Notes: generated by a model from the sequence alone, not told the origin. A stretch of DNA of 64,000 bases from an uncultured bacterium (GCA_965372535.1 CBDVCR010000001.1:11290-75289), one strand, 5' to 3'. Counted from the stretch's first letter, positions 19,379-63,751 are shown. A program made the numbers and translations.

Positions 19379-19591
19379 GGCCGAAGGGGCCTGATACGCG
19401 GGGTTTCCGGCCCTAACCCGGCCGGGGCCGAGATGTCCGGTGGAGGCGAGACGAGCAGCTTTTCGGTTATCCCGTGTAACCGAGAAGGCGGAGCATTGCC
19501 GGAAGGGTTTTGTTCGAGGGGTTTCAAAGTCCGCCCTTTATTGGTCAGGTCGCACCCTGGCCCAGGAAGCCATGAGGTTTTATGGAGCAGG

Positions 19592-34727: not shown

Positions 34728-34830
34728 ATGATGAGTGTGATTTGTATCACGTTTTTTTTTATGGTTTTCCTTTAATTTATTAATATAGCAGATTTAATCT
34801 GCTCTGAATGCAAAGTGCAGAGGAGAAGAT

Positions 34831-36130: not shown

Positions 36131-37606
36131 ATGGATACAACTTTTCAAGCTCAAAGCCTTTCCCGGAGAGTGATCATAAGCGGTTTCTGGGTGTTGGCGA
36201 TCAGGATGACCCACCAGGCTTTCAAGTTGGTCAGGCTGTTGATCCTTGCCCGCATCCTTGCCCCTAACGATTTCGGACTGCTCGGGATTGCCTTGTTGAC
36301 ATTAGGCGCAGTGGAAACATTCTCCAAGACGGGATTCGAAGCCGCCTTAATCCAGAGAAAAGATGATATAAGAAGCTATCTTGACAGCGCGTGGACTATC
36401 CTGGTTTTAAGGGGGGTTATCCTATTCGTGATCCTCTACTTGATTGCTCCTCATGTGGCTGTCTTCTTCGATACCCCGGAGGCAAAGCCTATCATTCGGG
36501 TTATAGGGTATTCAATCCTCTTTAAAGGTTTTACCAATATAGGGATAATATATTTTCAGAAGGACCTAGAGTTCAATAAGCAGTTCATCTATCGATTCAG
36601 TGGCACATTGGCAGATTTTATCGTCGCCGTTTCCGCAGCATTGATATTAAGAAACGCCTGGGCTCTCGTTGTCGGCCTGCTTGCGGGCAATCTAGTGGAA
36701 TTTCTTATGAGCTACATAATCCATCCTTACAGGCCCCGCCTGAGTTCTGATTTCAAAAAGGCAAAGGATCTGTGGGGCTTCGGGAGATGGGTATTAGGGT
36801 CGAGCATGCTGATATTCCTGGTCAACCAGGGCAACGATATCATGGTCGGAAAGGTACTGGGTGCGACCGCGCTTGGTTTTTATTTAATGGCGTACAGGAT
36901 TTCAACCATGCCTTCCGCGGAGATAAGCCATATGATTTCGCAGGTGATATTTCCGGCATACTCCAAGCTGCAAAACGACATGCCGAGGTTAAGAGAGGCA
37001 TTCCTGAAAGTAACTCAACTTACGGCATTTTTGTCTTTTCCCATAGCAGGTCTGATAGTTGTTCTGGCACCGGACTTTGCCAGGATATTTTTAGGAGAAA
37101 AGTGGTTGGCAATAGTGCCAGCGATGCAGGTATTGGCATGCGCCGGGCCGATGCGATCAATAGCCGCCACATTCGGTTACATGTTTTACGCCATAGGGAG
37201 GCCAAAAACGGACACCGCCATGCAGATACTCCGCCTGTCGATATTGTCCGCCTTGATTTTGCCCTTTACCTTGAAGTGGAACATCCTGGGAACTTCAATA
37301 GTGGTTCTCTTGAACATATCCATCCCGGTTATCGTGTTTAGCCTGATAAGCATTAACATCACTAAATGCGGGATCAAAAAATATGCTAACAATTTCCTGC
37401 TGCCGTTGATAAACATGATCATAGTGGTGCTGCTCGTGCAGGGACTGAAAACCTTTGTCACTGTCGGGGCAGGAGAGTTTGTGGCGTTGGCGTGCACAGG
37501 CATTTTCTCTTACCTCTTGCTGACTTACTATCTGGACAGTTTTTTTAAATTCGGAATAAGCCCCTTGATAAGGGAACGCGTGTTCGCCAGTATAGTCAAG
37601 AGATGA
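36131..37606 (+). CDS. polysaccharide flippase (Wzx, MOP superfamily)
   Basis: About 12-14 transmembrane helices with the typical N-terminal R/K-rich helix. Confidence 0.8.
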   Translation: MDTTFQAQSLSRRVIISGFWVLAIRMTHQAFKLVRLLILARILAPNDFGLLGIALLTLGAVETFSKTGFEAALIQRKDDIRSYLDSAWTILVLRGVILFVILYLIAPHVAVFFDTPEAKPIIRVIGYSILFKGFTNIGIIYFQKDLEFNKQFIYRFSGTLADFIVAVSAALILRNAWALVVGLLAGNLVEFLMSYIIHPYRPRLSSDFKKAKDLWGFGRWVLGSSMLIFLVNQGNDIMVGKVLGATALGFYLMAYRISTMPSAEISHMISQVIFPAYSKLQNDMPRLREAFLKVTQLTAFLSFPIAGLIVVLAPDFARIFLGEKWLAIVPAMQVLACAGPMRSIAATFGYMFYAIGRPKTDTAMQILRLSILSALILPFTLKWNILGTSIVVLLNISIPVIVFSLISINITKCGIKKYANNFLLPLINMIIVVLLVQGLKTFVTVGAGEFVALACTGIFSYLLLTYYLDSFFKFGISPLIRERVFASIVKR

Positions 37607-39773: not shown

Positions 39774-40694
39774 ATGAAAACCCTTAATGCTGAAGGAATT
39801 CATCTTGAGCCGCAGTCGCGAGTTACCCCAAGGAATATTTCCTTCCTGCTGTTTAATATTATTGCCCTTATGATGTTTTATCGACCAATTCACGAGTTGT
39901 TTTCAATGTCGTTGCATAATAATCTTTACTCTCACGTGGTTCTGGTGCCGCTTGTAAGCGGGTATCTGATTTATTCGAGAAGGAAGATTATATTTGAGGA
40001 CGTGAGGTATTCATTTCCAGCGGTCGCCGTTATTTTTGCCGGAATCTGTCTGTATCTTATTTGGAAAAAATCCCCTGGAAGCGTAAATCAAAACGACGCT
40101 TATTCACTCATTTCGCTTTCTTTTGTTATATTCTGGATAGGCGGATTCATATTCCTTTACGGGATTCGAGCATTCCGGCGTGCACTGTTTCCCCTTCTAT
40201 TTCTTTTCTTTATGGCGCCGATTCCTACCCTGATGGCGGATAAAATAATCTGGGTCCTGGAGAGCGGTTCAACGGAGGTCTCTTACTGGCTGTTCGAGCT
40301 TTCGGGGATTCCTTTTGCAAGAGAAGGGTTTGTGTTTCATCTCCCCGGGCTGAGCATCGAAGTGGCCGAGCAGTGCAGCGGCATCCGTTCGAGCCTTGTG
40401 CTTTTAATGTTCGGCATTTTACTGGGCAACCTCTTCTTGAAAAGCCGGTCCGGAAGATTACTCCTGATTTTAGCGGTTTTTCCCGTAACCGTGCTGAAAA
40501 ACGCCTTGCGGATTGTGATGCTTTCAGTCCTCGGGGCGTACGTCGATATAAGGATACTAGACGGCATCCTTCACCGGCGGGGGGGAGTGCCCTTTTTCGT
40601 CATAGCGCTTTCAATGCTGGTAATATTCCTTTGGGCTTTAAGGCTATCCGAAAAAAGCTTTAACGCCAGAGGTGAGACAAAATGTTTGAAATAA
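39774..40694 (+). CDS. exosortase (XrtA/EpsH-type)
   Basis: Polytopic membrane protein with the catalytic-Cys motif AEQCSGIRS. Conserved Arg (NALRIV) and His (GILHRRGG) are also present. It lies next to prsK and prsR. Confidence 0.85.
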   Translation: MKTLNAEGIHLEPQSRVTPRNISFLLFNIIALMMFYRPIHELFSMSLHNNLYSHVVLVPLVSGYLIYSRRKIIFEDVRYSFPAVAVIFAGICLYLIWKKSPGSVNQNDAYSLISLSFVIFWIGGFIFLYGIRAFRRALFPLLFLFFMAPIPTLMADKIIWVLESGSTEVSYWLFELSGIPFAREGFVFHLPGLSIEVAEQCSGIRSSLVLLMFGILLGNLFLKSRSGRLLLILAVFPVTVLKNALRIVMLSVLGAYVDIRILDGILHRRGGVPFFVIALSMLVIFLWALRLSEKSFNARGETKCLK

Positions 40695-42751
40695 CCCTGT
40701 CGGCCATATCCTCTTTTTTTCTCCTCGCCCTTTCCTTGTTCGTGATATTGAAGAAGAGGTCGGCCCCGAACGCGTCCCTTGGCGCCGTCCTGCTTTTACT
40801 TTTGGCAATCGAGCTTATGGACAGGTTTGCCCTTGTTCTTCCGGGAGAGCCCCTTGCGTTTAAAGGGGCCGCTCTTTTTTTCGAGTCGCTACTCCCTGCT
40901 GCTTTCCTGGCCTTCAGTCTCACCTATGCGCGGCAAAGGTCGGGGAACTTCCCCTCTTTTATCTGGGTTTTTCTCATGGCGTTGGCTGTCGCCTTCCCCT
41001 TGGGCGCGCTGTTTATTCCGCTCGATGATTTCTTCTATTCCCCCGACATCCGGTCGGAAAAAACGCTGTTTCTCGGTCAAGCCGGATATTGGTTTTATAC
41101 TGGGCTAATGGTCTACTGCGTCGCATCTTTAGTAAATATAGAGGCCACTTTCGCGGCCTCCTCGGGCGAGGACAGATGGAGGATGAAATTCGAAGTCGTG
41201 GGGATAAGCGCCGTTCTGGCGGTGCTTGTATTCTATTTCAGCCAGGGACTTCTGTACAGGACCATAAACATGGACCTTTTGCCGGCAAGGTCGGGGGTAA
41301 TGATACTGGCCTTCCTTCTTATAGGATATTCGAGGGCTTTCAGGGGCAATGACGTCCGGGTCGAAGTGTCAAGATACGTTGTCCATCGGTCGTTGGCGCT
41401 TCTCGTAATAGGGATATATTTTCTCGCTCTCGGGGTAATAGGCGAGGGCATGAGGTATTTGGATGTCTCTTTTGGACGCGACCTGACTATTTTCATCGCA
41501 TTTGCCGGCGCCGCCGCAGTGCTGCTCGTTCTTTTTTCCGAAAAGCTCAGGAGAAAGGCCAGGGTGATTATCAACAAGAATTTTTATGCCCAAAAGCATG
41601 ATTACAGAAACGAGTGGCTCAGGTTCACCGGCAGGCTCTCGTCCTGTAAGACGGCCGCTGACGTACAGGGCGTTATACTTGCCACATGCAGGGAGGCCCT
41701 GGACCTCAGGGGCGCTTCCCTGTACCTTGCGGCAGGAGAAAATAAATTTCTTCTCGGGGCGAACCAGGGGATGCCGGAAGAACCGCGAGAGTTTCGGGCT
41801 TCCGATGGAATGCTCGCGTATTTTATGGACCGGGGCAGGGCTTTCAGCCCCTTTGACGGAGAGTATGTCCCTGACGAAGAGGAAGCCTCTTTTGTCCGGC
41901 GCACCGGGGCGGCGTTGACAGTGCCCTTGATTGGCAACGATAAGGTCGAAGGCCTTCTGGTGTTCGGCGAACGGTTGAGCCGGGAGGAGTTTATCTATGA
42001 GGACTATGACCTCATGAAGACGCTTGCAAGGCAAGCTGCTCTTTCAATAAAGAAATTTTCGCTTTCGGAGGAGCTTGCCGAGGCAAGGGAGATGGCGGCG
42101 GTGGCGAGGATTTCCTCGTTCGTCATCCATGACCTTAAAAACCTCGCTTCCTCGCTTTCCGTGCTTTTAGACAATGCGCAGGATTACATGGATGAGCCGG
42201 ATTTTCAGAAAGACACGCTCAAGACCATCGGAAACACGGTTGCGAGGATGAAGAGCATAATGCAGAGGCTGAAGACCATACCGCAAAAGCATTCCCTGCG
42301 CCCGCAACCAGTGGACCTGGCCCTTCTCTCAAGAGAGGCGGTGGGTGAGGTCGCAAGGGTAAAACCGGGGGCGAAGTTGGTATGCCGGGGCACGAAGGCG
42401 GCGTCATCTGTTGATGTCGAGGAGATAAGAAAAGTCGTCATGAACCTGTTGCTCAATGCGGTTGAAGCGTGCAATGGAGACGGCGTCGTAAGGGTAGGCA
42501 CCGGCCGCAGCGACGGCATGGCATATGTCCGCGTGGAGGACAGCGGGTGCGGGATTGACGATGAGTTTATGAAAAACCATTTGTTCAAGCCCTTCAGGAC
42601 GACAAAGCAAAAAGGGCTTGGCATAGGGCTCTACCAGTGCAAACAGATAGCGGAGGCGCATGGCGGCAGACTGGAGGTGGAAAGCGAGGTCGGCAGGGGT
42701 TCTGTCTTTACGGTGTATCTGCCGGCCCCGGCCTCGAGGTGCACAGTGTAA
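40682..42751 (+). CDS. prsK: PEP-CTERM system histidine kinase (PrsK-like)
   Basis: 689 aa: a multi-transmembrane N-terminal half, a GAF-like region, H-box FVIHDLKN, NLLLNAVEA, DSGCGI and GLGIGLYQ. Confidence 0.85.
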   Translation: MFEITLSAISSFFLLALSLFVILKKRSAPNASLGAVLLLLLAIELMDRFALVLPGEPLAFKGAALFFESLLPAAFLAFSLTYARQRSGNFPSFIWVFLMALAVAFPLGALFIPLDDFFYSPDIRSEKTLFLGQAGYWFYTGLMVYCVASLVNIEATFAASSGEDRWRMKFEVVGISAVLAVLVFYFSQGLLYRTINMDLLPARSGVMILAFLLIGYSRAFRGNDVRVEVSRYVVHRSLALLVIGIYFLALGVIGEGMRYLDVSFGRDLTIFIAFAGAAAVLLVLFSEKLRRKARVIINKNFYAQKHDYRNEWLRFTGRLSSCKTAADVQGVILATCREALDLRGASLYLAAGENKFLLGANQGMPEEPREFRASDGMLAYFMDRGRAFSPFDGEYVPDEEEASFVRRTGAALTVPLIGNDKVEGLLVFGERLSREEFIYEDYDLMKTLARQAALSIKKFSLSEELAEAREMAAVARISSFVIHDLKNLASSLSVLLDNAQDYMDEPDFQKDTLKTIGNTVARMKSIMQRLKTIPQKHSLRPQPVDLALLSREAVGEVARVKPGAKLVCRGTKAASSVDVEEIRKVVMNLLLNAVEACNGDGVVRVGTGRSDGMAYVRVEDSGCGIDDEFMKNHLFKPFRTTKQKGLGIGLYQCKQIAEAHGGRLEVESEVGRGSVFTVYLPAPASRCTV

Positions 42752-42818
42752 TGGCGCGGACGTTTTTATGCCGCTTCGCGGCCTGCGCCTTTGCGGGAGG
42801 CCACAGGGAGACGCCGGG

Positions 42819-44282
42819 ATGGAAAAGCTCTTAATCATCGACGACAACGAAGATATCAGAAGGCAACTCAAGTGGGGCTTTGCGAAAGAGTACGAAACGC
42901 TTATGGCGAAAGACGCCGAAGAGGCGCTCGCCCTTTTCGGGAGGCACGGCCCGAAAGTCGTGACCCTCGACCTGGGGCTGCCGCCGCATGCGGATACGGT
43001 GGTCGAGGGGCTGCGGTGCCTTGAAAGAATTCTGGCCGAGCGGCCTTCGACGAAGATTGTCGTGATAACGGGCAACGAGGAGGGGGAAAACGCGCTCAGG
43101 GCCGTGCGGATGGGAGCATATGATTATTACCGGAAACCGATAGACCTCAAGGAGCTGAGGGTTATCGTCAAGAGGGCTTTCCACCTGCATGAGATCGAGC
43201 GGGAGAATCTCAGGCTTCACACGGCCATTGCCGAAGGGAAGCCCGCCGGGTTGGAAGGCATGCTGGGGCAATGCCCGGAGATGGAGGCTGTTTTCTCGAT
43301 TATCGGGAAGGTCGCCTCCTCCGCCGTCAACGTGCTGGTAGTCGGCGAAAGCGGTACGGGCAAGGAACTGGCGGCCAAGGCGATTCATGCCGGCAGCTTG
43401 AGGAACAGGGGTCCCTTCATGCCGATAAACTGCGGCGCCATCCCCGAGAACCTCCTTGAGTCCGAACTCTTCGGGCACGAAAGAGGCGCTTTCACCGGCG
43501 CGCACGCCAGGCTGCAGGGGAAGTTCGAGTACGCGCACGGAGGCACGCTCTTTTTTGACGAGATAGGCGAGCTGCCGGCGAACCTGCAGGTGAAGCTGCT
43601 CCGCTTTCTCCAGGAGAAGACCATCCAGCGGGTGGGGGGGAGGGAGGACATAGCCGTTGACGCGAGGATTATCGCCGCAACGAATATCGATATATCAAGA
43701 GCCATGAAGGAAGGCGCCTTCAGGGAGGACCTCTACTACAGGCTGGGCGTGATTACGATAAAACTTCCGCCGCTGAGGGAGAGGAAGGGAGATATCATGC
43801 TCCTTTCGAGCTTCTTTCTGCAGAGGGCCAACGCGGAGTTCAAAAAGAGGGTGAGGGGGTTCAGCCCCTCGTCGGTAGAGCTTCTTGAGTCTTGTCATTG
43901 GCCCGGCAACGTGAGGGAGCTTGAGAACAGGATTCAGAGGGCGGTCATTATGTCGGAGGCGACGGTCATTCAGCCCCAGGGCCTCGGGTTCATGGATACC
44001 CCCGCAAGGCAGGAGTCCGGGATCGCCGAGACGATGACCCTCCGGGAAGGGAGGGACAGGGTGGAGAAGGAAATGATAATCGCCGCCACCGAAAAATGCG
44101 AGGGCAACATAGCAAGGACAGCCGAAAGGCTCGGCGTAAGCAGGCCGACACTTTATGACCTAATGAAGAAACACGGTCTTTTCAGTATGCCGGTGCAGGG
44201 CCGGGACGGAGGGGGCCAGAGAAACGGGCCTGTCTCCGATGCGCCGCCCGGCGCGCGGAGCGGTTTACATCCCCTCCCTTAA
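42819..44282 (+). CDS. prsR: PEP-CTERM-box sigma-54-dependent response regulator (PrsR-like)
   Basis: The protein starts MEKLLIIDDNEDIRR. It has REC, AAA+ (GESGTGKE, GAFTGA) and Fis-type HTH domains. Confidence 0.9.
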   Translation: MEKLLIIDDNEDIRRQLKWGFAKEYETLMAKDAEEALALFGRHGPKVVTLDLGLPPHADTVVEGLRCLERILAERPSTKIVVITGNEEGENALRAVRMGAYDYYRKPIDLKELRVIVKRAFHLHEIERENLRLHTAIAEGKPAGLEGMLGQCPEMEAVFSIIGKVASSAVNVLVVGESGTGKELAAKAIHAGSLRNRGPFMPINCGAIPENLLESELFGHERGAFTGAHARLQGKFEYAHGGTLFFDEIGELPANLQVKLLRFLQEKTIQRVGGREDIAVDARIIAATNIDISRAMKEGAFREDLYYRLGVITIKLPPLRERKGDIMLLSSFFLQRANAEFKKRVRGFSPSSVELLESCHWPGNVRELENRIQRAVIMSEATVIQPQGLGFMDTPARQESGIAETMTLREGRDRVEKEMIIAATEKCEGNIARTAERLGVSRPTLYDLMKKHGLFSMPVQGRDGGGQRNGPVSDAPPGARSGLHPLP

Positions 44283-45220: not shown

Positions 45221-45345
45221 AAAAGAGCCGCCGGAGAAATCCTCTCTGGCGGCCCGGCGGACATAGGATAGCGTTTGCTGACATCCTTTAGTCCCGTCGC
45301 TCTGCGTCCCCGGGTTTCCCCAGGTTTGCTCTGAGCAGAGAACCT
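45221..45345 (-). promoter_or_regulatory. GEMM-I (cyclic-dinucleotide) riboswitch-like leader with intrinsic terminator, upstream of the crp-like gene
   Basis: The RNA reads ..CAGAGCAAACC-UGGG-GAAA-CCCG-GGGACGCAGAGC..GGAC-UAAA-GGAU..AUCC-UAU-GUCC.., then GCCGCCAGAGA..UCUCCGGCGGC-UCUUUU. This matches the Vc2 core GGCAAACC..GAAA..GGGACGCAAAGC. Confidence 0.75.
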
Positions 45346-45388
45346 ATGCATTAATTATTAAATAATAATAAGAACAGACAGAAAAAAA

Positions 45389-45404
45389 TGTGATTCAAAT
45401 CACA
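45389..45404 (-). promoter_or_regulatory. CRP/FNR-type box TGTGATTCAAATCACA (perfect palindrome)
   Basis: TGTGA-N6-TCACA centred about 41 bp upstream of the predicted start of the riboswitch leader, with an AT-rich -10 region between them. Confidence 0.7.
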
Positions 45405-45467
45405 TTGCGGCAGAGGGTTAAGGGCATGCAAAAACCGCGGGCTTTTTGTTGTTTGCGGAAACGGGAA

Positions 45468-46583
45468 TCAGCGGGAAAGGTAGGTGCTTATTTCGGTCGA
45501 GTAGGCGCTTTCGTTGCCCTGTGTATCGTATGCCGTTACGGCGAAATAATAGTATAAGCCGGTCGGGAGGTTCCCGACGGTGTATTGCGTTACATTTGCC
45601 ACGTCAAACGATTCGGTATAGTTGCCGGTGGAAGTTCCGTAATAGAGCCTGTAGCCCGCGAGGTCATCAAGTGGAGCGCCCTCTTCGTTGGTCGTGGGCG
45701 CATCCCAGAGAAGGGTTACCGGGCGGTGGGTTTGCAAAGGACTCGTTGCGGTACAAGCCTGGATGCCTGCGGTTGATTCGTTGCCTTCCGTATCATATGA
45801 GGTAACGGTATAGCAGTATGCTGTTGCGGGGAACAACCCCGTATCGCTGTAGACGGTGGAAGTAGAGGTTCCTGTTTCAACGCCGTCTCTGTAAACCCTG
45901 TAGCCGGCGACTCCGGAACCGTCTCCGTCCGTGGAAGGATTCCACGAGAGGTCAATCCGGCTTGAGGAAACAACTTTTGTTATCAGTCCCGTTACGGCCT
46001 CCGGAGGGGTGATGTCCAACCCGGAGCCTATTGGTTCGGTGGCAACGGGGTCTGGTTCGGAGATAACGGGGGCCGGCTCGGAGCCTATTGGTTCGGTGGG
46101 AACGGGGTCTGGTTCGGCGGGAACGGGGTCTGGCTCGGCGGGAACGGGGTCTGGCTCGGCGGGAACGGGGGTCATCATTATATTAATTATGGATTCGGTT
46201 TTTTTCTCCACGTCCACGATACCGGCATAAGGCTCATATCCGTCACCGGTTGCGGTAATGGTTATGCCTTTCCCTTTTACTATATTCTTGATAGTGTATT
46301 CTCCGTTGCCGGCCGTAATGTCCATTGCTTCGCCTATCCGGACCATGACCGCTGAAAGAGCCGTCCCGTCAACATCGGTTACAATGCCGGTGACGCTGCC
46401 GAGGACCCCATAGGCATTTCCTGTCCCATTATATAGCGAACCCTCCGCGAGTCCTCCAGGGGCGTCCTTCGCAATATTTTCGGCAAAGCCGTTTCCCGCG
46501 GCATATCCGGTTATGGACAAAACGGCCACGAAAAAGACAAGAAGATGTGGGGCGCCGTGTTTCACTGAAAATGTTTTCATCAA
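45468..46583 (-). CDS. secreted surface protein: carboxypeptidase-regulatory-like domain, Pro-rich repeat linker, two FN3 domains
   Basis: Signal peptide; GIVTDVDGTALSAVMVRIG.. domain; PVPAEPD x3 linker; two FN3-like modules (..LSWNPSTD.., ..LLWDAPTTNEEG..). Confidence 0.75.
   Translation of the reverse strand: MMKTFSVKHGAPHLLVFFVAVLSITGYAAGNGFAENIAKDAPGGLAEGSLYNGTGNAYGVLGSVTGIVTDVDGTALSAVMVRIGEAMDITAGNGEYTIKNIVKGKGITITATGDGYEPYAGIVDVEKKTESIINIMMTPVPAEPDPVPAEPDPVPAEPDPVPTEPIGSEPAPVISEPDPVATEPIGSGLDITPPEAVTGLITKVVSSSRIDLSWNPSTDGDGSGVAGYRVYRDGVETGTSTSTVYSDTGLFPATAYCYTVTSYDTEGNESTAGIQACTATSPLQTHRPVTLLWDAPTTNEEGAPLDDLAGYRLYYGTSTGNYTESFDVANVTQYTVGNLPTGLYYYFAVTAYDTQGNESAYSTEISTYLSR
46024..46173. 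repeat. in-frame tandem 21-bp repeats (about 4 copies plus diverged copies)
   Basis: Units ggytcggygggaacggggtct lie at 46090, 46111, 46132 and 46153. They encode PVPAEPD on the minus strand. Confidence 0.85.
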
Positions 46584-46668
46584 ACCTTCATGATTCCATC
46601 GAAAGGCGCGGCTTTCGGCAAAGCATAAGCGGAATGTTTTATTATTTTCCGAAACAACGGTAAAAAGA

Positions 46669-46684
46669 TGTGATTTGAATCACG
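46669..46684 (-). promoter_or_regulatory. CRP/FNR-type box TGTGATTTGAATCACG
   Basis: One mismatch from the palindrome; centred about 93 bp upstream of the ATG at 46583. Confidence 0.6.
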
Positions 46685-46826
46685 CCTCTTTCTAACGGGA
46701 CCGTTGGCAGGCCGACATATGAATGCCCCGGAATCCCTGCTCACGGGGCCTTGGAAGGATTCAACGCCGGATGAGAACCTGACCGGTTGATAATAAATCT
46801 GTACTTCAAAGGGTGTTATGTGAATC

Positions 46827-46852
46827 GGGCGGACCCCTTCCGGGGTCCGCCC
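46827..46852 (-). terminator. strong GC hairpin downstream of the FN3/PKD gene
   Basis: gggcggacccc-ttcc-ggggtccgccc. No clear U-tract follows. Confidence 0.4.
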
Positions 46853-46876
46853 GTTGCGTGACCGGCCAAGAAGATA

Positions 46877-48745
46877 TTACCCGCGTGCCTTCTCGTGTCT
46901 GTTCCTTTTCCGGTGCGCTATCAGGAACATGACGATGCCCGCAAGGACAATAATGCCGCCTAAGGAGGCCCTGGGAAACTTTATTCCATAGACAATCGGC
47001 GCAAGCGCCCGCCTAGTGGCGACCCTCAGCGCTTCGTGTCTTGAGATAAAGTCCGCCGCCTGCGGAGACAGCCTGTAGTAGGCGGCCACGAACGCCCTGC
47101 CCGGAAGGCTGCCAAGCAGGTATTCGTCCCTGAATTTCCTGAGCACCACTACATCGGGAGCCAGGGAGCTTCCGTAAGCGGCGGTTGCTATGAAGCATGC
47201 ATACGGGGAGGGGATTGTCGAATCCATGGAACCGGGTGGAGTCACGTCGGTGCCTGTGCCTCCCTGGTCTTGTCCCGGGTCCGCTGAAACGGTAATAACC
47301 GTCTCGCCGCTTGCCGATGCTCCGCCGTCGTCCGTAAACCGGACTTTTGCCGTGAAGGTGCCGGGGGTCTGATAGGTATGAGAGACGGGGCTTGCGGCGG
47401 TCTGGGCGTCGAAAACTCCGTTTCCGTCAAAGTCCCACTCGTACAGGACTATCTTTCCGTCGGGGTCCGAGACCACGGTGGAAAAAACCACCGTTAACGG
47501 CGCTGTTCCCGCATTGGGCGAGGTTTTGACCGAGGAGACGACCGGAGGTTCGTTCAGCGCGGAGGTTGCCGTTATCGTCACCGGAGGCGATATGGTCGAG
47601 GCCCCGCCGTTGTCCGTGATTTTCAGGCGCACGTTGCAGGCGCCTTCGTTTGAATATATATGGGACGCGCTCGATACCGCGCCCGTGTTCTCATCGAATG
47701 TGCCGTCGCCGTCAAAGTCCCACTCGAAGGCGACGACGGCGCCGTCGGGGTCCGATGCCTGTGCCGTAAAGTCCACGAGGAGGGGGACGGTCCCGGTCGC
47801 GGGGGCTGCTGAAAAAGCGGTTATCACGGGGGAGAGGTTCGATGTCGTGAAAGAGTGTTCCGCCGACATGGCCTCGTTGCCCGCTGCGTCGGCGGACCTG
47901 ACCCTGAAGACGTAGGTGGTAAAGCTCGAAAGCCCCGTAATCTCCACGGAATGCATGGTGACCGGGTCGGAAACAAGTGGGGTGATGCTCCCGTAAGCTG
48001 AGGCAAGGCCGTGTTCGACCCTGGAGGACGAGGGCTCGTCGGTCGTCCAGGAGATAATCGCCGAAGAGTCTGTAATGCTTGCGGTCTGTACCGCGGTTAT
48101 TACCGGAGGCGTCGTATCCAGCGGGTCGGACGTGGTGAAGGTATGGGTTTCCGAGACTGCCGCGTTGCCTGCGGCGTCGGCGCTCAGTACCCGGTAGTAG
48201 TACTGTGTTGAAGGCGAAAGGCCGCTTACGCCCTGGGAGTGGGTGGTGACAGGCGAAGGGTCGAGGGCGGTGGAGCTTCCGAGGGCGAGGGTTGCGCCGT
48301 ATTCCACACGGGTGTCGGAAGCCTCGTCAGTGGTCCAGTTTATGGTCGCGCTCTCGACGGTAACGTCCCCGGCGTAGACCCCGGAAATCACCGGGGCGGA
48401 GGTATCCGCGGTTGCCGGGGTCATACTGGCCTCGTTTGAGTACGCGCTTTCATTGCCCGCCGAGTCGTAAGCACTGGTCGCGAAATAGTAGGTGAGGCCG
48501 TTTGTGAGGCCGGTGACCCGGTAGGTTGTCACTTTTCCAACGTCTATGCTCGACGAATAACCGCCGCTTGCGGCGCCGTAGTACACCCTGAAGCCCGCAA
48601 GGTCGCCCAGCGCCGTGCCGTCCTCGTTAGTTGTGGGCGCGTCCCAGGCAAGGGTGGCCTCGCCAGCGAACGCGGAGGCGACTAAAACAAAGGTCAAAAA
48701 GACAATCAAACAAACTGTTGCTGTACTTTTTCCGTTTCTTTTCAA
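46877..48745 (-). CDS. large secreted FN3/PKD-repeat surface protein with a C-terminal CFIATAAYGS-type sorting-like domain
   Basis: The TTG start at 48745 follows a GGGGAGGA RBS. A signal peptide is followed by FN3 modules and two PKD-like modules (..FDGDG[TV]FD..). The tail is ACFIATAAYGS..LRKFRDEYL.. plus a transmembrane helix and HRKRNRHEKARG. Confidence 0.8.
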   Translation of the reverse strand: MKRNGKSTATVCLIVFLTFVLVASAFAGEATLAWDAPTTNEDGTALGDLAGFRVYYGAASGGYSSSIDVGKVTTYRVTGLTNGLTYYFATSAYDSAGNESAYSNEASMTPATADTSAPVISGVYAGDVTVESATINWTTDEASDTRVEYGATLALGSSTALDPSPVTTHSQGVSGLSPSTQYYYRVLSADAAGNAAVSETHTFTTSDPLDTTPPVITAVQTASITDSSAIISWTTDEPSSSRVEHGLASAYGSITPLVSDPVTMHSVEITGLSSFTTYVFRVRSADAAGNEAMSAEHSFTTSNLSPVITAFSAAPATGTVPLLVDFTAQASDPDGAVVAFEWDFDGDGTFDENTGAVSSASHIYSNEGACNVRLKITDNGGASTISPPVTITATSALNEPPVVSSVKTSPNAGTAPLTVVFSTVVSDPDGKIVLYEWDFDGNGVFDAQTAASPVSHTYQTPGTFTAKVRFTDDGGASASGETVITVSADPGQDQGGTGTDVTPPGSMDSTIPSPYACFIATAAYGSSLAPDVVVLRKFRDEYLLGSLPGRAFVAAYYRLSPQAADFISRHEALRVATRRALAPIVYGIKFPRASLGGIIVLAGIVMFLIAHRKRNRHEKARG

Positions 48746-48764
48746 GATATCCTCCCCTTTCAAC

Positions 48765-48893
48765 AAAAAAAGCCGCCAGAGAAATATCTCTGGCGGCACG
48801 GCGGGCATGGGACAGCTTATCTCCGGGCCGTCCTTTAGCCCCGTTGCTCTGCGTCCCCGGGTTTCCCCGGGTTTGCTCTGAGCAGAGAAGAAC
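48765..48893 (-). promoter_or_regulatory. GEMM-I (cyclic-dinucleotide) riboswitch-like leader with intrinsic terminator, upstream of the FN3/PKD gene
   Basis: It has the same architecture as 45221-45345, with compensatory base-pair changes. The terminator GCCGCCAGAGA..UCUCUGGCGGC-U7 ends about 20 nt before the RBS. Confidence 0.8.
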
Positions 48894-48941
48894 CGTTGTT
48901 TTCCGTTCTGTGTTAATTTAAACGAACCGGATGGAAAAAAC

Positions 48942-48957
48942 TGTAATTCAAATCACA
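48942..48957 (-). promoter_or_regulatory. CRP/FNR-type box TGTAATTCAAATCACA
   Basis: One mismatch; centred about 41 bp upstream of the predicted leader start. Confidence 0.65.
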
Positions 48958-49038: not shown

Positions 49039-51318
49039 TCAGGGAGGGGGCTGCCGGGATTTCAGGGCTTTTTCGAGGGCCTTGACGACCGAAGGGTCGT
49101 AGATTGTGCACGAGCCCTTTTTTATTTCCTGCAGTGCTTCTTTCTTTGTGAATTTTTTCCCGTACGGCCTTTCCCTCGTCATTGCCGAGAATGCGTCGAT
49201 AACGGAGATGGCCCGTGAAATGAGGGGTATTTCCTCCCCCCTCAGACCGTCCGGATAGCCCGAGCCGTCGTACCTTTCATGGTGGTGGAGTATGGCGTCC
49301 CTGGCTTTTTCGGAAAACTCAAAGTCGTCCAGCAGGGTTACGGTCGTGTACGGATGGACCCTTAGGGTGCGGGCCTCGGCGGGAGAGAGTTTGGTGCTCT
49401 TCTCAAGAATGCTTTGGTCGATAAACATAAGCCCGAGGTCGTATATCATGGAGACGTAAACCGCGAGGGCCTTTTCCCCCTCCTCGACTCCGAGGTCGTC
49501 CATGACGTCCGAGATAAGGTCAGGGAACAACTTCTTCTTTTTATGGTATCTCTTTTCGGCGTCAAGGAGGCCCTGGAAGGACGTGATGAACTGTTTGAAA
49601 TCATATTCCACGGGGCCGTCCATGGAGAACTTTTCGAAAAAATGCGAAACCCTTTCGACCACCTCGAGGGCGATATAAAGGTCGCGGACCGTGAAGGGGG
49701 ATGAGGTCCTCTTGTTGTTGAGGTTGAGCACCCCTATTGCCTTGTCCCGCAGCTTTATAGGCACTGAAATAAGGGATTTCGTGTTGTACCGCGGATTGTT
49801 CTTCCTTCCGAAACGCGGGTCGCTCTCTATGTCTTCTATGAGCAGTGGTCTGCCCTCGATGGCAACCCACCCGGAAATCCTGTCGCTGAACCGTATTCTC
49901 GTCCGCTTTATGACGTCTTCGGAAAGCCCCATGGCCCCCTTAATCGTAAGTTCCCCCGACAGGTCGTCGCTGAGCATGATGGAACAGACGTTGACGTCGA
50001 GCAGGTCCGAGATGAACTCGATGAACAGTTCCATGGCGGTGTTGACGACGGCCTCCCTTTTTTCCCTTTTTCCTTTTGGGATTGTCAGGGTGACGTGGAA
50101 TTTGTCGTTAATGTTTTGCGCTGTCATTTCCCACCTGTGAAACTCCGCCACCTTCCGGGCAAGGTAGAAGTTCAGGCCCTCCCGGGGATGGTCCGACTGG
50201 AAGATGTATCCTGTTGTGGCGAGGTAGGGCAGTATCGCCTCGGGCATCTTTCTGGGGACGACCAAATCCACGTCTATGAAATTGTTCTCGTGGATGCTCA
50301 GGTCAATTGCGTCTCCGGTCTCAAGGTGGTGGCTGAGGCCCTCCATGAGGTTCAGAAAGAACTGGGCGAGCCTGGTCTTGTCGGCAGCGATGTACGATAT
50401 GTCCTTTTTGATGTCCGTTTCGAGCCTCAGGTCCTTTTTCGCGAGCAAGGAGTTCAGCATCCTGGAGTTTACGAGCTCCTCTATGAGGTCGGCGAGGTTC
50501 ACAACCGTCTTTCTTACCGCCCTCGTTTCGTCGTCAAGCCTGAGGAAATCAAGCAGGTTTTCGACGATGGAGACAAGCTTCGTTGTCTCGTCGCCGATGA
50601 TGTCGCGATATTCCCTCTGGTCGCTCGGGGGCATGTCCCCGGTCTGCTGCAAATAGTATATGGCCCCGCTGATTGAATTGAGCGGCGTCCGGAGCTCATG
50701 AGAGACATGGGTTACGAATTCGGTTTTTACGACGTCGCTCTCGATGAGTTTCTTATTCATCTCCTCAAGCTCCGCGGCCTTCGCCTTGAGCTGTTTCATC
50801 AAAAACGCGTTTTCCAGGGCGATGGCCGCCTGGTTCGCTATGATCTTAACCAGGTCGAATTCGTCTTCCGTAAAAGCTTTCTCGTCCTTCTTGTCGTTGA
50901 TGTTGATGACGCCGAGCAGCCTGCTCTTGCTTATCAGCGGGCATGAGATGAACGATTTTGTCCTGAAACGCTCTCTTGTTTCCCCCGGGAACAGGTCGCT
51001 TTCCTCGATGTTTTCGACAAGGACGGGAACGCGGTTTTTCGCCACCATGCCGGCAATCCCCTTGCCTATCTCTGTTCTGCTGCTTCTGATTTGCGGGCCG
51101 CTAACGCCTCTTGAGACAAAGACGTACAGTTCGTCCCGCTCGCTGAGAAGCATCAGGGAGCCTTTTTCGGCGTTGGCGTAGTTCAGGGCGGACTCCAGCA
51201 TGAGGTTGGCGATGGCGCTTACGTTGTCCGTGGCGACTATGGCGCTCGTGGTTTCCTGAAGTATGCAGAACTTCTTCTCGAAAAGCTCCGGATTTTGCAT
51301 AAGGCAATTATAATTCAT
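49039..51318 (-). CDS. GAF - HisKA - degenerate HATPase - GAF - HD-GYP multidomain signalling protein (cyclic-dinucleotide phosphodiesterase candidate)
   Basis: H-box FVTHVSHELRTPLNSISG is present. The kinase ATP-lid region lacks the DxGxG and GxGxG boxes. The C-terminus has HHHERYDGSGYPDGL (HD-GYP). Confidence 0.8.
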   Translation of the reverse strand: MNYNCLMQNPELFEKKFCILQETTSAIVATDNVSAIANLMLESALNYANAEKGSLMLLSERDELYVFVSRGVSGPQIRSSRTEIGKGIAGMVAKNRVPVLVENIEESDLFPGETRERFRTKSFISCPLISKSRLLGVININDKKDEKAFTEDEFDLVKIIANQAAIALENAFLMKQLKAKAAELEEMNKKLIESDVVKTEFVTHVSHELRTPLNSISGAIYYLQQTGDMPPSDQREYRDIIGDETTKLVSIVENLLDFLRLDDETRAVRKTVVNLADLIEELVNSRMLNSLLAKKDLRLETDIKKDISYIAADKTRLAQFFLNLMEGLSHHLETGDAIDLSIHENNFIDVDLVVPRKMPEAILPYLATTGYIFQSDHPREGLNFYLARKVAEFHRWEMTAQNINDKFHVTLTIPKGKREKREAVVNTAMELFIEFISDLLDVNVCSIMLSDDLSGELTIKGAMGLSEDVIKRTRIRFSDRISGWVAIEGRPLLIEDIESDPRFGRKNNPRYNTKSLISVPIKLRDKAIGVLNLNNKRTSSPFTVRDLYIALEVVERVSHFFEKFSMDGPVEYDFKQFITSFQGLLDAEKRYHKKKKLFPDLISDVMDDLGVEEGEKALAVYVSMIYDLGLMFIDQSILEKSTKLSPAEARTLRVHPYTTVTLLDDFEFSEKARDAILHHHERYDGSGYPDGLRGEEIPLISRAISVIDAFSAMTRERPYGKKFTKKEALQEIKKGSCTIYDPSVVKALEKALKSRQPPP

Positions 51319-58786: not shown

Positions 58787-58918
58787 CCACCGAAAAGAGC
58801 AAAGCCGGGGTAACCGGGCGGCGCAAAGCCACCTGCCCTGAGTTAATCGAAGGGTAGAGGGGGTTGCCGAAGTGGAAAGAGCAGCATCTTCGGCCCGTCT
58901 TTTCGGAGGCGGGTTTTT
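58787..58918 (+). promoter_or_regulatory. GEMM-I (cyclic-dinucleotide) riboswitch-like leader with terminator, upstream of the transglutaminase-core gene
   Basis: The RNA reads CCACCGAAAAGAGCAAAGCCGGG-GUAA-CCGGGC-GGCGCAAAGCCACCUGCCCU..AGGGUAGAGGGGGUUGCCGAAGUGG. It aligns along its length with Vc2 (..GGGACGCAAAGCC..GGUAGCGGGGUUACCGAUGG). The hairpin CCCGUCU..GGAGGCGGG-U5 follows. Confidence 0.8.
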
Positions 58919-58945
58919 ATGTTTACAACATTCGGGGGAGGTACG

Positions 58946-61930
58946 ATGGACTTCAGGCATACGCTTATCGCGAGGGCCGTATCATTTATAGTCCTGCTCC
59001 TGTTTTCGTGGACGTTCGCGGGCGTTTACGACGTGGCCTATGCTGTCAAGAACAGCGGCGAGTTATTCAACAAAGACAACCGTGTTCGCACCATAAGGGG
59101 AAAGACCGCCGCCGGGAAGTTCGAGGAGGCCGTCGAGCGCATGGAGGAGGCCCTTGCCGACCCCTCGCTTGAGATGAAGGACAAGAAGGGCCGGCTGGCG
59201 AAGGTCAGGTCAGAGATGGAGAGGCTTGCGGAAAAACTCAGGGAGGAGTTCGGGGCCACGGAAAAAAAGCTCAGGGAAGACGGGCTTCCCCCGGAGATAC
59301 TTGACAGGCATCATGATTTTGTAAAGCGCTTCGAGGAGAACCTGGACACGGTGCTCGAGCACATCGAGTCCATTGACCGGGCGGCAACGCATTCTGATTT
59401 CGACAAGCGGGTGGGAAAAGCTCTTGAGCATGTCAAAAAGGCAAAGCCGCCGAAGAAGCACGTTCCCCTCGACCCCGACAACCTCCCCCACCGTGCCGCC
59501 GAGCCCACCAGGAAGGAGCCCAGGCTCAAGAAAGAGGAGTTCATAAACGGCATGAGGGCACAGGCCGAGCCCATCCTTGTTGCCTCCACGGGTTCCCTTG
59601 CCGGGCTTCTGGATGAGAACTCACAATATATGCAGCTTGCCCTGGCCGTCGGGCTGCCCGGGCAGGCCGACCTTGCCGAGACAGTGGAGATAAAATTCAC
59701 TCCCGCCATACAGACCAGGGCCGAGGAGCTTGGCGGCAGGCCCCTTGCCATCTACGAGTGGGTGAGGAATAACGTGGAGTTCGTGCCCACCTGGGGCTCC
59801 ATACAGGGTGCGGACTACTGCCTTCAGACCATGCAGTGCAATGCCTTCGACACGGCAAGCCTGCTTATCGCCCTTCTCAGGGCCTCGGGCATCCCGGCCC
59901 GGTACGCCATGGGCACGGTGGAGATGCCCATGGAAAAAGTCATGAACTGGGCCGGAGGGTTTACTGATGCCAACGCGGCCCTTAACTTCATGGCCTCGGG
60001 CGGCATACCCGCAGGGGGGCTCGTCGAGGGCGGGCGGATAAAGGTCGTCCAGATGGAGCACGTCTGGGTGGAGGCATGGATTGATTACATCCCCTCGCGC
60101 GGGGCGCGGCACAGGCAGGGCGGAGGCGATACTTGGATACCCCTGGACGCGAGCTTCAAGCAGTATGCCTATACGGACGGCATGGACGTTAGCTCGGCGG
60201 TTCCATTTGACGCCGAGGGGTTTGCCGACGCCCTCATATCCTCTGCAATCATAAACGAGACGGACGGCTACGTCACCGGGGTGGACTCTGCCTACATCCA
60301 GCAGGCGATGAGCGAATATCAGGCTCAGGTCAGCGATTATATCACTACTAATCATCCTGACGCCACGGTGGGCGACGTTCTTGGAAAGAATGAAATCATT
60401 GTCCAGAAATTTCCGTATCTTCTGGGTACGCTTCCTTACAGGCTCAGGGTAACGGGGGCGCGGTACAGCAGTATGCCCGACAGCTACCGGCATAAGATCG
60501 AGTTCTACCTCGCCGCCGAGAGCATAATTTCCGGGTCAATGCCCATAAGCATCACCAGGAGCCTGCCCGAGCTTGCGGGGAGGAAGATAACGCTCAGCTA
60601 CTCTCCGGCCACTCCAGAGGATGAGGCGGTTATCAACTCCTATCTGCCAGAGCCCCATCCTGACGGCACGCCCATAGACCCCTCTGAGTTTCCGTCCTCG
60701 CTTCCGGCGTATCTGATAAACTTAAAGCCGGAACTGAGAATGGACGGCGAGGTGGCAGCCACGGGCGGGGCGATAGGCATGGGCCATATACAGAAACTCG
60801 ACATGACGTTTACATCTCCGAGCCATGGAAGCGGCGTGGTGGCAAACAAGGTCAATGCGGGCGAGTACTTCGGCATCGCGCTGGATTTGGCCGGGATATC
60901 CGGGCCGCAGATGGAGGCCGTCAAGGCGAAACTTGAGAGCACCAAGGCGAAGCTCGAGTCGGGCAACTACGAGGGGCTTACCAAGGACGACGTCTTGGGC
61001 GACCTGCTCTATGCCACGGCGCTTTCTTACTTCGCGGAGCTCGACGCAATGGACCACGTGCAGGCAAGGACAATGGGGGTGGTTGACATAAGGCTCCCGT
61101 CCGAGAATATTTTCAAGACGGCGCTGGAAGTGGAGCATTCCTTCGGCGTTCCCGTATCCGTTAGCGCGGGCGGGCTTGCGATGGACGCAGACAGGATGTT
61201 GAGCCTTTCGAAGGCCAGGGACGGAGACTATGAGAAGAAGAGGCAGTTCATGCTGGCCTCCGGGATGAACTCATCGGCCCTGGAGCACAGCGTGCCGGAG
61301 CAGTTGTTCTCGACGCCCGAAAACCCGGTCGAGGGGATAAGCGCGGTCAAGGCCCTCCAGATAGCCAACGGGCAGGGCATACCGATATATACGGTCACCA
61401 GGGACAACATCGCCGCGGTGTTTCCGCAGCTACAACTTGACCCCCGGGTGATTAATGATATTTTAAACGCCGTGAATGCGGGCATGGAGGTTACGGTCTC
61501 GAAGACGGACATAACCTACAACGGCTGGATCGGCTGCGGCTACCTCGTCATAAACCCCCTGACGGGTTCCGGCGGGTATATGATTAGCGGGGGTGCGAGC
61601 GGGGCAGTTTTGCTGGTGCTTACCCTTATTTTTAGTTTATTAGCGATAGTGACCGCCGCACCTACTGGCGGAATAGGAGCAGTTTTCTTTGGAATGCATG
61701 CTATTGCAACATTGGAAGGCGCAATCGCTGCATTGTATGGGAAGGATAAATTAAATGAATTTATGAATTGTTTAGTTAAAAGCGTTGCCAAGATTATTGT
61801 TAAAGATAAGACTGCTCACTATTTAAAACCGTATTTAATACCTGCAGTAGCTGTACTGTTACCTTACATCCTATCATTTACTGCTGGTTGGTCCATAGGT
61901 AAATGTATCAGTGACACATTTTACAATTAA
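58946..61930 (+). CDS. large secreted/membrane protein with a transglutaminase-like Cys-His-Asp core, a conserved pre-C-terminal block and a variable hydrophobic C-terminal cassette
   Basis: The ATG at 58946 follows a GGGGGAGG RBS, and there is a signal/anchor sequence. The core is QCNAFDTASLLIALLRASGIPARY, EHVWVEAW and WIPLDAS. The last ~105 aa are AT-rich at DNA level and transmembrane-like. Confidence 0.8.
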   Translation: MDFRHTLIARAVSFIVLLLFSWTFAGVYDVAYAVKNSGELFNKDNRVRTIRGKTAAGKFEEAVERMEEALADPSLEMKDKKGRLAKVRSEMERLAEKLREEFGATEKKLREDGLPPEILDRHHDFVKRFEENLDTVLEHIESIDRAATHSDFDKRVGKALEHVKKAKPPKKHVPLDPDNLPHRAAEPTRKEPRLKKEEFINGMRAQAEPILVASTGSLAGLLDENSQYMQLALAVGLPGQADLAETVEIKFTPAIQTRAEELGGRPLAIYEWVRNNVEFVPTWGSIQGADYCLQTMQCNAFDTASLLIALLRASGIPARYAMGTVEMPMEKVMNWAGGFTDANAALNFMASGGIPAGGLVEGGRIKVVQMEHVWVEAWIDYIPSRGARHRQGGGDTWIPLDASFKQYAYTDGMDVSSAVPFDAEGFADALISSAIINETDGYVTGVDSAYIQQAMSEYQAQVSDYITTNHPDATVGDVLGKNEIIVQKFPYLLGTLPYRLRVTGARYSSMPDSYRHKIEFYLAAESIISGSMPISITRSLPELAGRKITLSYSPATPEDEAVINSYLPEPHPDGTPIDPSEFPSSLPAYLINLKPELRMDGEVAATGGAIGMGHIQKLDMTFTSPSHGSGVVANKVNAGEYFGIALDLAGISGPQMEAVKAKLESTKAKLESGNYEGLTKDDVLGDLLYATALSYFAELDAMDHVQARTMGVVDIRLPSENIFKTALEVEHSFGVPVSVSAGGLAMDADRMLSLSKARDGDYEKKRQFMLASGMNSSALEHSVPEQLFSTPENPVEGISAVKALQIANGQGIPIYTVTRDNIAAVFPQLQLDPRVINDILNAVNAGMEVTVSKTDITYNGWIGCGYLVINPLTGSGGYMISGGASGAVLLVLTLIFSLLAIVTAAPTGGIGAVFFGMHAIATLEGAIAALYGKDKLNEFMNCLVKSVAKIIVKDKTAHYLKPYLIPAVAVLLPYILSFTAGWSIGKCISDTFYN
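61181..61611 (+). repeat. conserved ~430-bp block, copy 1 (inside the large gene)
   Basis: It aligns colinearly (constant offset 1186 bp, no indels seen) with 62367-62797 at high identity. It encodes MDADRMLSLSKARDGDYEKKRQFML...GSGGYMISGGASGAV. Confidence 0.85.
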
Positions 61931-63632: not shown

Positions 63633-63751
63633 CCACCGAAAGGGCAAGGCCGGGGCGACCCGGCGGCGCAAAGCCACCTGTCCCATTAAGGATAGAGGGG
63701 CCGTCGAAGTGGGAAGAAACTTTGCCCACCCTTTCGGAGGTGGGCTTTTTT
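63633..63751 (+). promoter_or_regulatory. GEMM-I (cyclic-di-GMP type) riboswitch-like leader with terminator
   Basis: The RNA reads CCACCGAAAGGGCAAGGCCGGG-GCGA-CCCGGC-GGCGCAAAGCCACCUGUCC..GGAUAGAGGGGCCGUCGAAGUGG. The hairpin GCCCACCC-UUUC-GGAGGUGGGC-U6 follows. Confidence 0.8.

Follow-up and report, generated by a model that had tools for sequence, protein, structure and literature searches.

Two GEMM-I leaders with adenine at position 20 and a predicted ON-switch architecture precede a Crp/Fnr regulator gene and an FN3/PKD surface-protein gene

Results

Four GEMM-I riboswitches lie in one 64-kb window

We analyzed a stretch of 64,000 nucleotides from an uncultured bacterium (GCA_965372535.1, CBDVCR010000001.1:11290-75289), here called the window, and focused on two 5' leaders on its minus strand, of which one (copy 1) precedes a gene for a Crp/Fnr-type regulator and the other (copy 2) a gene for an FN3/PKD surface protein (Table 1). 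Both leaders belong to the GEMM-I riboswitch family (Rfam RF01051, c-di-GMP-I, named after cyclic di-GMP, c-di-GMP), and the evidence below makes it very likely that they are type-1 cyclic-dinucleotide riboswitches working as transcriptional ON switches. Each lies on the coding strand, with promoter-like elements upstream, a terminator that overlaps the 3' end of the aptamer, and its gene or genes downstream on the same strand. A first-pass annotation had proposed two such leaders at 45221-45345 and 48765-48893, ranges that run from the P1 5' strand through the end of the terminator T-run; the sequences it quoted are present on the minus strand in both, and the domains of the downstream genes are as it described.

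Family membership is established directly. A search with the Rfam c-di-GMP-I model using cmsearch, the check that this annotation had suggested, was clearly positive for copy 2 (48887-48789, 63.7 bits, E=3.8e-10) and copy 1 (45340-45245, 60.9 bits, E=1.8e-9) at a gathering score of 35 bits, and both matches span the entire model (positions 1-87 of 87). The same scan returned two additional copies on the plus strand (copies 3 and 4), so that both proposed leaders are real but the window carries four GEMM-I riboswitches rather than two. RF01051 was the top-scoring model for all four, ahead of RF03167 (c-di-GMP-I-GGC) and RF03168 (c-di-GMP-I-UAU), which share clan and fold with the leaders. The assignment to type 1 is likewise borne out by a GAAA tetraloop on P1a and a CUAAAG/YAUG receptor-like internal loop in P3 (ACUAAAGG/CCUAUGU in copy 1, GCUAAAGG/CCCAUGC in copy 2), which fits the model consensus CUAAg...uAuG. 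Both leaders start with UCUCUG-CUCAGA-GCAAACC(U/C)GGGGAAACCCGGGGACGCAGAGC, or, divided by element, UCUCUG-CUCAGA-GCAAACC(U/C)GGG-GAAA-CCCGGG-GACGC-AGA-GC; the next helix is GGGAC-UAAA-GGAU...AUCC-UAU-GUCC in copy 1 and GGGGC-UAAA-GGAC...GUCC-CAU-GCCC in copy 2.

Table 1. Features of the four riboswitch copies and of neighboring genes (window coordinates)
Feature	Coordinates	Strand	Evidence or detail
Copy 1 promoter region	45365-45404	minus	perfect CRP-consensus palindrome TGTGATTTGAATCACA at 45389-45404
Copy 1 aptamer, GEMM-I type 1	45243-45341	minus	RF01051 60.9 bits, covariation
Copy 1 P1 5' strand UCUCUG	45341-45336	minus	
Copy 1 J1/2 CUCAGA	45335-45330	minus	A20 at 45330
Copy 1 G21-C22	45329-45328	minus	
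Copy 1 P1a hairpin	45324-45309	minus	GAAA loop
Copy 1 A47, G48	45303, 45302	minus	
Copy 1 P3	45300-45251	minus	UAAA/UAU receptor-like loop
Copy 1 G91-C92	45250-45249	minus	C92 = 45249
Copy 1 P1 3' strand CAGAGA	45248-45243	minus	
Copy 1 intrinsic terminator	45221-45253	minus	GCCGCCAGAGA-GGAUU-UCUCCGGCGGC (one A.C mismatch), then UCUUUU
Copy 2 promoter region	48915-48957	minus	CRP-type box TGTGATTTGAATTACA at 48942-48957
Copy 2 aptamer, GEMM-I type 1	48787-48888	minus	RF01051 63.7 bits
Copy 2 P1 5' strand UCUCUG	48888-48883	minus	
Copy 2 J1/2 CUCAGA	48882-48877	minus	A20 at 48877
Copy 2 A47-G48-A49	48850-48848	minus	A47 = 48850
Copy 2 G91-C92	48794-48793	minus	C92 = 48793
Copy 2 P1 3' strand CAGAGA	48792-48787	minus	
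Copy 2 intrinsic terminator	48765-48797	minus	GCCGCCAGAGA-UAUU-UCUCUGGCGGC, 11 perfect pairs, then U7; terminator scan
Crp/Fnr regulator gene, 232 aa	44265-44963	minus	cNMP_binding 8e-25, HTH_Crp_2 1.5e-12 (Pfam); GTG start after GAGGGA
FN3/PKD surface protein gene, 622 aa	46877-48745	minus	PKD_4 1e-23, fn3 1.9e-14 (Pfam); TTG start after GGGGAGG
CRP-type box preceding second FN3 gene	46669-46684		TGTGATTTGAATCACG
Second FN3 / CarboxypepD_reg-like secreted protein gene	45468-46583	minus	downstream of FN3/PKD gene
GAF-HisKA-GAF-HD_5 protein gene	49039-51318	minus	directly upstream of leader 2
Copy 3 aptamer	58788-58871	plus	RF01051 53.5 bits; A20 at 58798, C92 kept
Copy 3 terminator	58892-58915	plus	
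Transglutaminase-like protein gene, 1003 aa, after copy 3	58919-61930	plus	Transglut_core (Pfam)
Copy 4 aptamer	63633-63708	plus	RF01051 50.8 bits; G20 at 63643
Copy 4 terminator	63724-63745	plus	
Secreted-protein gene after copy 4	start 63801	plus	runs past window end
Classical PEP-CTERM protein	5643-6347		C-terminus PEPSTLSMAVVGGIILIVGIIARRR
glmS	6764-8734	minus	
PrsT	11866-14619		
Chain-length determinant	15447-16976		
TIGR03016 outer-membrane protein	19433-20815		
PrsK	40682-42751		
PrsR	42660-44282		

Covariation across relatives supports the aptamer structure

The leaders differ in two base pairs of P3 (A-U to G-C and U-A to C-G, with the UAAA loop kept), which the first-pass annotation had offered as compensatory changes and which our leader alignment confirmed. 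Since the two leaders are paralogues (79% identity across about 300 nt, promoter included), two such events are weak support by themselves, and the weight of the covariation argument comes from aptamers in other genomes. These relatives were collected with a pattern scan that kept one genome per species and yielded at least 120 loci (L001-L120); adenine at position 20 (A20; numbering as in Vibrio cholerae Vc2) was fixed in the pattern, and the frequencies are therefore not unbiased. When the canonical structure was laid on 38 related aptamers, 94% of cells were paired, against 30-48% with the partners slid by 1-3 columns, and 17 pairs were altered on both sides. The covariation score was 0.366, against 0.128 in shuffled alignments, with none of 500 shuffles reaching the observed value. 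P1, P1a and P3 were independently recovered by RNAalifold, and an anchor-based count over 51 aptamers gave 87% canonical pairs, against 28-42% when shifted. Both positions at which the leaders differ covary family-wide: among the 38 aptamers the first is G-C in 21, A-U in 15 and G-U in 2, and the second A-U in 15, G-C in 12, C-G in 5 and U-A in 2.

In P1, the pairs G14-C93 and U13-A94 serve as the anchor and the three pairs after them covary; the helix occurs as CUCUG/CAGAG here and as CGCUG/CAGCG, CUUUG/CAAAG or CUCCUG/CAGGAG elsewhere. Anchoring and covariation together fix its register, and thereby define CUCAG-A20 as a six-nucleotide J1/2, of the length given in the crystal description of the Geobacter riboswitch Gs1761. 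We discarded a different register (with pairs such as G19-C93 and C17-G95), as the cross-species changes fit the UG/CA-anchored register only. Positions 48 and 90 covary as well (G-C in 63 and A-U in 35 of 102 aptamers from L001-L120 and the window, with four exceptions). G48 is unusual with respect to the family consensus, and we initially read it as a change in the ligand pocket; this reading was rejected because G48 is one half of a covarying pair. The pair closes P3 beside the pocket and corresponds to the first P3 pair of Gs1761, A42-U73; it is absent from the drawn RF01051 consensus structure. CUCAG occurred together with G48 in 47 of 48 cases. These features mark a subfamily of the form ...CUG-CUCAG-A-GCAAA...GACGCAGAGC...GCCG(G/A)GCCGCCAG..., which among the matches listed is abundant in metagenome-assembled genomes (MAGs) of Gemmatimonadales (Gemmatimonadota), Nitrospirota, Acidobacteriota and Chloroflexota. 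Soil metagenomes include contigs (L131, L174, L241) on which two subfamily aptamers stand in tandem about 160 nt apart, like some described Geobacter GEMM-Ib leaders.

Close and more distant relatives retain the structure of the individual leaders. Leader 1 is kept in a 94%-identical relative (L125), where changes are confined to loops or to a wobble pair and the terminator is conserved. A Nitrospiraceae MAG (L077) also has the module of leader 2 (CRP-type box, riboswitch, and an FN3 gene starting ...WDAPTTN(E/A)DGT), in which P1, P1a and the terminator have undergone compensatory changes.

As a side observation, an invariant GCUC at the P1-J1/2 junction (G14-C17; 45336-45333 and 48883-48880) is complementary to an invariant GAGC at the base of P3 (G48-C51; 45302-45299 and 48849-48846). 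RNAalifold and single-sequence minimum free energy (MFE) folding draw this helix as an alternative pairing, which may perhaps belong to the apo state.

Aptamer and terminator are mutually exclusive in both leaders

The 5' arm of the terminator, GCCGCCAGAGA in both leaders, is built from the final three nucleotides of P3, G91-C92 and the entire P1 3' strand, and its 3' arm repeats the sequence of the P1 5' strand (UCUC(U/C)GGCGGC) before running into a stretch of U. Unconstrained MFE folding gave -55.8 kcal/mol for copy 1 and -70.1 kcal/mol for copy 2, in each case with the terminator; when P1 was enforced, the values were -37.4 and -45.2 kcal/mol and the terminator was absent. Because C92 and the P1 3' strand are shared, and given these folds, aptamer and terminator are mutually exclusive, termination is the default, and both leaders are predicted to be ON switches. 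Across the subfamily, 91 of 147 unique aptamers have NNNUGGCGG(C/U) within 70 nt downstream, in 70 of these 91 followed by a T-run. Moreover, the P1 5' strand, the P1 3' strand and the terminator 3' arm show three-way covariation, being C-G-C in 51, C-G-U in 23 and U-A-U in 11 aptamers at one position, and G-C-G in 48 and U-A-U in 19 at the next. Such changes preserve both alternative pairings, and therefore support the switch itself in addition to the aptamer.

Each aptamer folds into the family's three-helix junction of P1 (UCUCUG/CAGAGA), P1a (P2 in the crystal-structure papers) with its GAAA loop, and P3 with its receptor-like loop, and J1/2 (CUCAG-A20), A47 and G91-C92 make up the ligand pocket. 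In the mechanism that we propose, the terminator (GCCGCCAGAGA...UCUCNGGCGGC, U-run) would, without ligand, take up the P1 3' strand, C92 and the final three P3 nucleotides as its 5' arm, and transcription would halt before the Crp/Fnr gene (copy 1) or the FN3/PKD operon (copy 2). Bound ligand would lock P1 and C92 in the aptamer and block the terminator, so that the downstream genes would be transcribed.

A terminator that sequesters the ligand-pairing C, as both leaders have in silico, is the ON architecture of GEMM-Ib riboswitches. It has been demonstrated experimentally for the cGAMP (cyclic GMP-AMP) ON switch of Geobacter metallireducens pilM, in which the terminator sequesters C75 (PMC9262584), and in G. 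sulfurreducens deletion of the cGAMP synthase gene lowers the transcripts under GEMM-Ib control (PMC6456294). By analogy, the predicted ON polarity of copies 1 and 2 fits both systems.

Adenine at position 20 may point beyond c-di-GMP

In GEMM-I riboswitches, G20 recognizes G-alpha of c-di-GMP, C92 forms a Watson-Crick pair with G-beta, and A47 intercalates (PMC6140456, PMC5888326). In GEMM-Ib, G20 is replaced by an A that recognizes the adenine of 3'3'-cGAMP (PMC6140456). The literature regards A20 as what determines acceptance of cGAMP (PMC6140456; PMC9262584). Both ligands are nevertheless bound by Vc2 G20A and by several RNAs with a natural A20 (e.g., Cbe 1-2) (PMC6140456; PMC9262584), and A20 RNAs recognize the guanine of c-di-GMP via a protonated adenine (PMC6140456).

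In the window, three copies (1, 2 and 3) have A at position 20 and only copy 4 has G, and the ligand contacts A47 and C92 are kept in both leaders. The leaders thus lack G20, the hallmark of c-di-GMP selectivity; their membership of RF01051 is unaffected, as the Rfam family includes A20 sequences. As this adenine occupies a ligand-contact position, c-di-GMP cannot be presumed to be the ligand of leaders 1 and 2. In a metagenome scan that freed only position 20 of the subfamily pattern, allowing A or G, we counted 122 A and 1 G. A20 appears to be under selection, which favors, without proving it, a ligand preference that includes cGAMP.

Like GEMM-Ib, the leaders have A at position 20 (A14 of Gs1761), an A that intercalates and, at C92 (equivalent to C75), a C that pairs with the ligand. 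The surroundings of the pocket differ: in Gs1761 P3 is closed by A-U and J1/2 is A-rich, with ligand contacts from A9, A11 and A12, whereas J1/2 CUCAGA retains only the equivalent of A12 (A18), has C in place of A9 and A11, and is combined with a P3 closed by G48-C90. Because J1/2 and the P3 closure are unlike those of Gs1761, we class the leaders as GEMM-I A20 variants and not as proven GEMM-Ib, noting that Gs1761-like surroundings are no formal defining feature of that class. They resemble a natural Vc2 G20A, and by this analogy are expected to accept 3'3'-cGAMP, selectively or along with c-di-GMP. Given the adenine at this contact position, the leaders may sense 3'3'-cGAMP besides, or in place of, c-di-GMP.

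Two other assignments were weighed against this one. The leaders could be classical GEMM-I riboswitches that respond to c-di-GMP only, with A20 binding G-alpha via the protonated adenine just described and cGAMP having no role in the host. Among the Rfam models, c-di-GMP-I matches best, and J1/2 CUCAG is Vc2-like rather than Geobacter-like, which also means that Geobacter-like cGAMP selectivity should not be assumed. The gene adjoining leader 2 is of the HD-GYP type, a domain classically tied to c-di-GMP, and a motif scan for GG[DE]EF, covering every long open reading frame of the window, found no match; no cGAMP synthase was seen there. (PrsT and pgi contain the two EAL..R matches, which appear to be chance hits.) What argues for some other selection is that A20 is nearly fixed although G would recognize c-di-GMP more tightly; in addition, G20A confers cGAMP binding on Vc2 (PMC6140456), and the retention of G20 in copy 4 of the same window suggests that the two variants are not interchangeable. 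Taken together, we find a response to c-di-GMP alone rather unlikely.

Conversely, the leaders could be strictly cGAMP-selective GEMM-Ib riboswitches like Gs1761 or Gm0970 (>1000-fold), as part of a Hypr-GGDEF/cGAMP regulon of Nitrospirota. Synthases of cGAMP are either Hypr GGDEF enzymes, in which Ser or Thr replaces the Asp that specifies guanine, or CD-NTases of the DncV type. A20, A47 and C92 fit GEMM-Ib (PMC6140456), the terminator architecture is that of pilM, and surface proteins and a regulator are also the targets in Geobacter (PMC6456294). However, A20 by itself makes binding promiscuous, as seen for Vc2 G20A and some natural RNAs (PMC6140456), and the two cytosines at cGAMP-contacting positions and the pocket-adjacent G48-C90 set these leaders apart from Gs1761. 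Strict selectivity therefore appears doubtful to us, and a preference that includes cGAMP, of whatever exclusiveness, is the reading that we retain.

Copies 3 and 4 show the opposite logic

In copies 3 and 4 aptamer and terminator can coexist, and the P1 5' strand (CCACCGAAA(A)G) is complementary to the loop and 3' arm of the terminator; these copies are therefore predicted to be OFF switches, with a logic opposite to that of copies 1 and 2. A similar arrangement, in which aptamer and terminator coexist and an antiterminator competes, is found in the Clostridioides difficile c-di-GMP OFF riboswitch Cd1 (PMC9262584), whose architecture is likewise opposite to that of the two leaders. Copy 4 has U instead of C at position 92 (about 63703), where GUC is aligned to the gCC of the model with high posterior. 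This U could pair with adenine, and copy 4 might have a non-standard ligand preference.

Downstream genes, promoter boxes and host

The Crp/Fnr gene starts about 260 nt downstream of the terminator of copy 1. Its product has CRP, NtcA and FNR as relatives in the PDB and hundreds of orthologues at 60-75% identity (full range 60-94%), of which all named ones come from Nitrospirota MAGs. The nearest relatives of the riboswitches, among the matches listed, are also from Nitrospirota (L077, L087, L103, L119), and the host is therefore probably a Nitrospirota lineage. A riboswitch was linked to crp only in the 94%-identical relative, and no RF01051 match was found upstream of three orthologous crp loci (L121, L123 and L124; 64-75% identity). 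We therefore rejected a general association between riboswitch and crp; judging from these loci, riboswitch control of the Crp regulator is lineage-restricted.

The FN3/PKD protein carries a signal peptide at its N-terminus and, at its C-terminus, a hydrophobic membrane anchor with a basic tail. An FN3 gene of the WDAPTTN.DG type clearly follows only copy 2 and the L077 element among the 138 subfamily riboswitches whose downstream sequence was long enough to judge; adding a looser motif match in L075 brings the association to 3/138, against a background of 3/414, and a family-wide link to FN3 genes was rejected. The GAF-HisKA-GAF-HD_5 protein encoded upstream of leader 2 has HHERYDGSGYP (an HD-GYP signature) in its C-terminal domain, with YD at the expected HD dyad, and its gene also neighbors the crp orthologue in L121 (GCA_037386885.1).

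Both leaders are preceded by perfect or near-perfect CRP-type boxes of the TGTGATTTGAATCACA type, located 66-72 nt upstream of A20. The proximal half of the box (ATCACA in copy 1) occupies the -35 slot of a promoter-like match. In copy 1, a -10-like TATTAT (45370-45365) follows 18 nt past the box; in copy 2, an A/T-rich -10-like element (TTAAAT/TAAATT, about 48921-48915) follows roughly 20 nt past the box, close to the spacing in copy 1. These positions match those expected of a box-overlapping (class II-type) activator promoter. Upstream of two other genes, too, boxes stand at a class II-like distance from -10-like elements. In the whole window there are five TGTGA-N6-TCACA sites with at most one mismatch, where 0.7 are expected: the two leader boxes, the box at 46669, and sites at 34736-34751 and 29719-29734. 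The spacer TTTGAA is common to the leader boxes and the 46669 box, and a gene at 34831, like the second FN3 gene, is preceded by one of these boxes. The Crp-like protein has a recognition helix of the RE...R type, with RETATR in the place of the DNA-recognition motif of E. coli CRP. It may thus act on its own promoter and on those of its neighbors, so that input from a transcription factor and input from the riboswitch would be arranged in series. GEMM-I elements of three Nitrospirota loci (L077, L119, L123) likewise have similar boxes in front of them. In L123 (10915-11100, plus strand), a Nitrospirota MAG with a crp orthologue, an RF03167 riboswitch (64.6 bits) follows the box TGTGATATTAATCACA at a distance of about 90 nt and precedes an FN3-like gene starting ...LSWDAPATNA, like the module of leader 2 with a variant aptamer class; to our knowledge, no ligand has been established for the RF03167 class.

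Upstream of the leaders, window positions 1-44300 hold an XrtA/PEP-CTERM exopolysaccharide locus (Table 1). Within its polysaccharide cluster, GC content falls from about 0.56 to 0.36 at 32-36 kb, near a flippase-like gene (36131-37606), which suggests a horizontally exchanged, glycan-specific cassette.

Discussion

The two leaders combine features of known GEMM-I systems. With Vc2 they share the three-helix junction, the GNRA tetraloop and its receptor, the GCAAAC...GACGCA core, A47 and C92. Its J1/2, CACAG-G, is nearly the same as the CUCAG-A found here. They differ from Vc2 in their natural A20, which they share with its G20A mutant, in having G48-C90 instead of A-U at the base of P3, and in being predicted transcription-termination ON switches, whereas Vc2 has been described as a translational riboswitch (PMC9262584). 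With the Geobacter GEMM-Ib riboswitches (Gs1761/pgcA, Gm0970, pilM) they share, besides the pocket nucleotides, a predicted ON architecture in which the terminator sequesters the pairing C and the P1 3' strand (PMC9262584), and the occurrence of several copies in one genome before genes for surface or extracellular proteins and a regulator (PMC6456294). They differ from these in their type-1 tetraloop receptor and in their host, probably Nitrospirota, Geobacter belonging to the Desulfuromonadales.

Several points weigh against reading the leaders as ON switches with a cGAMP-inclusive preference. We infer ON polarity in vivo from thermodynamic folding and covariation, not from co-transcriptional kinetics. 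In the terminator of copy 1, one A.C pair is mismatched and the U-run (UCUUUU) is weak, and the 258-nt spacer between this terminator and the crp start codon leaves room where a second promoter may lie; no significant structure was detected in this spacer (z = -1.16). To these are added the Vc2-like J1/2, the absence of GG[DE]EF motifs from the window, and the three crp loci that lack the element. The last point, together with the origin of the leaders as paralogous duplicates, could be taken to mean that they are non-functional relics or chance look-alikes, with only the terminators and promoters mattering. We consider this highly improbable: E-values of 1e-9 to 1e-10 over the full length of the model, intact nucleotides at all ligand and tertiary contacts, compensatory differences between the paralogues, and structures preserved through compensatory or loop-only changes in both the close (L125) and the more distant relative (L077) all argue against decay. 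Functional ON-type riboswitches thus remain our strongly preferred interpretation of copies 1 and 2.

As members of RF01051, the leaders are additions to a well-studied riboswitch class, and the only wider question that they raise is the ligand preference of the A20-fixed subfamily. We tentatively propose, as a possibility short of an even chance, that this large and so far uncharacterised GEMM-I subfamily, with its CUCAG J1/2, G48-C90 pair, GCCGCCAG terminator-embedded 3' end and nearly fixed A20, senses cGAMP beyond Geobacter. If the subfamily does sense 3'3'-cGAMP, alone or along with c-di-GMP, riboswitch-mediated cGAMP signaling would reach major soil and sediment phyla far outside Geobacter. 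Within the window, the combination of cGAMP sensing with CRP-type boxes, predicted OFF copies and a G20/U92 copy would then amount to multi-signal control of surface-protein and matrix genes. The predicted targets of the four copies are adhesin-like FN3/PKD proteins, a transglutaminase-like protein and a Crp/Fnr regulator, and the position of the riboswitches beside a PEP-CTERM locus offers a testable link from second-messenger signaling to biofilm or surface functions in what is probably a little-studied lineage of Nitrospirota.

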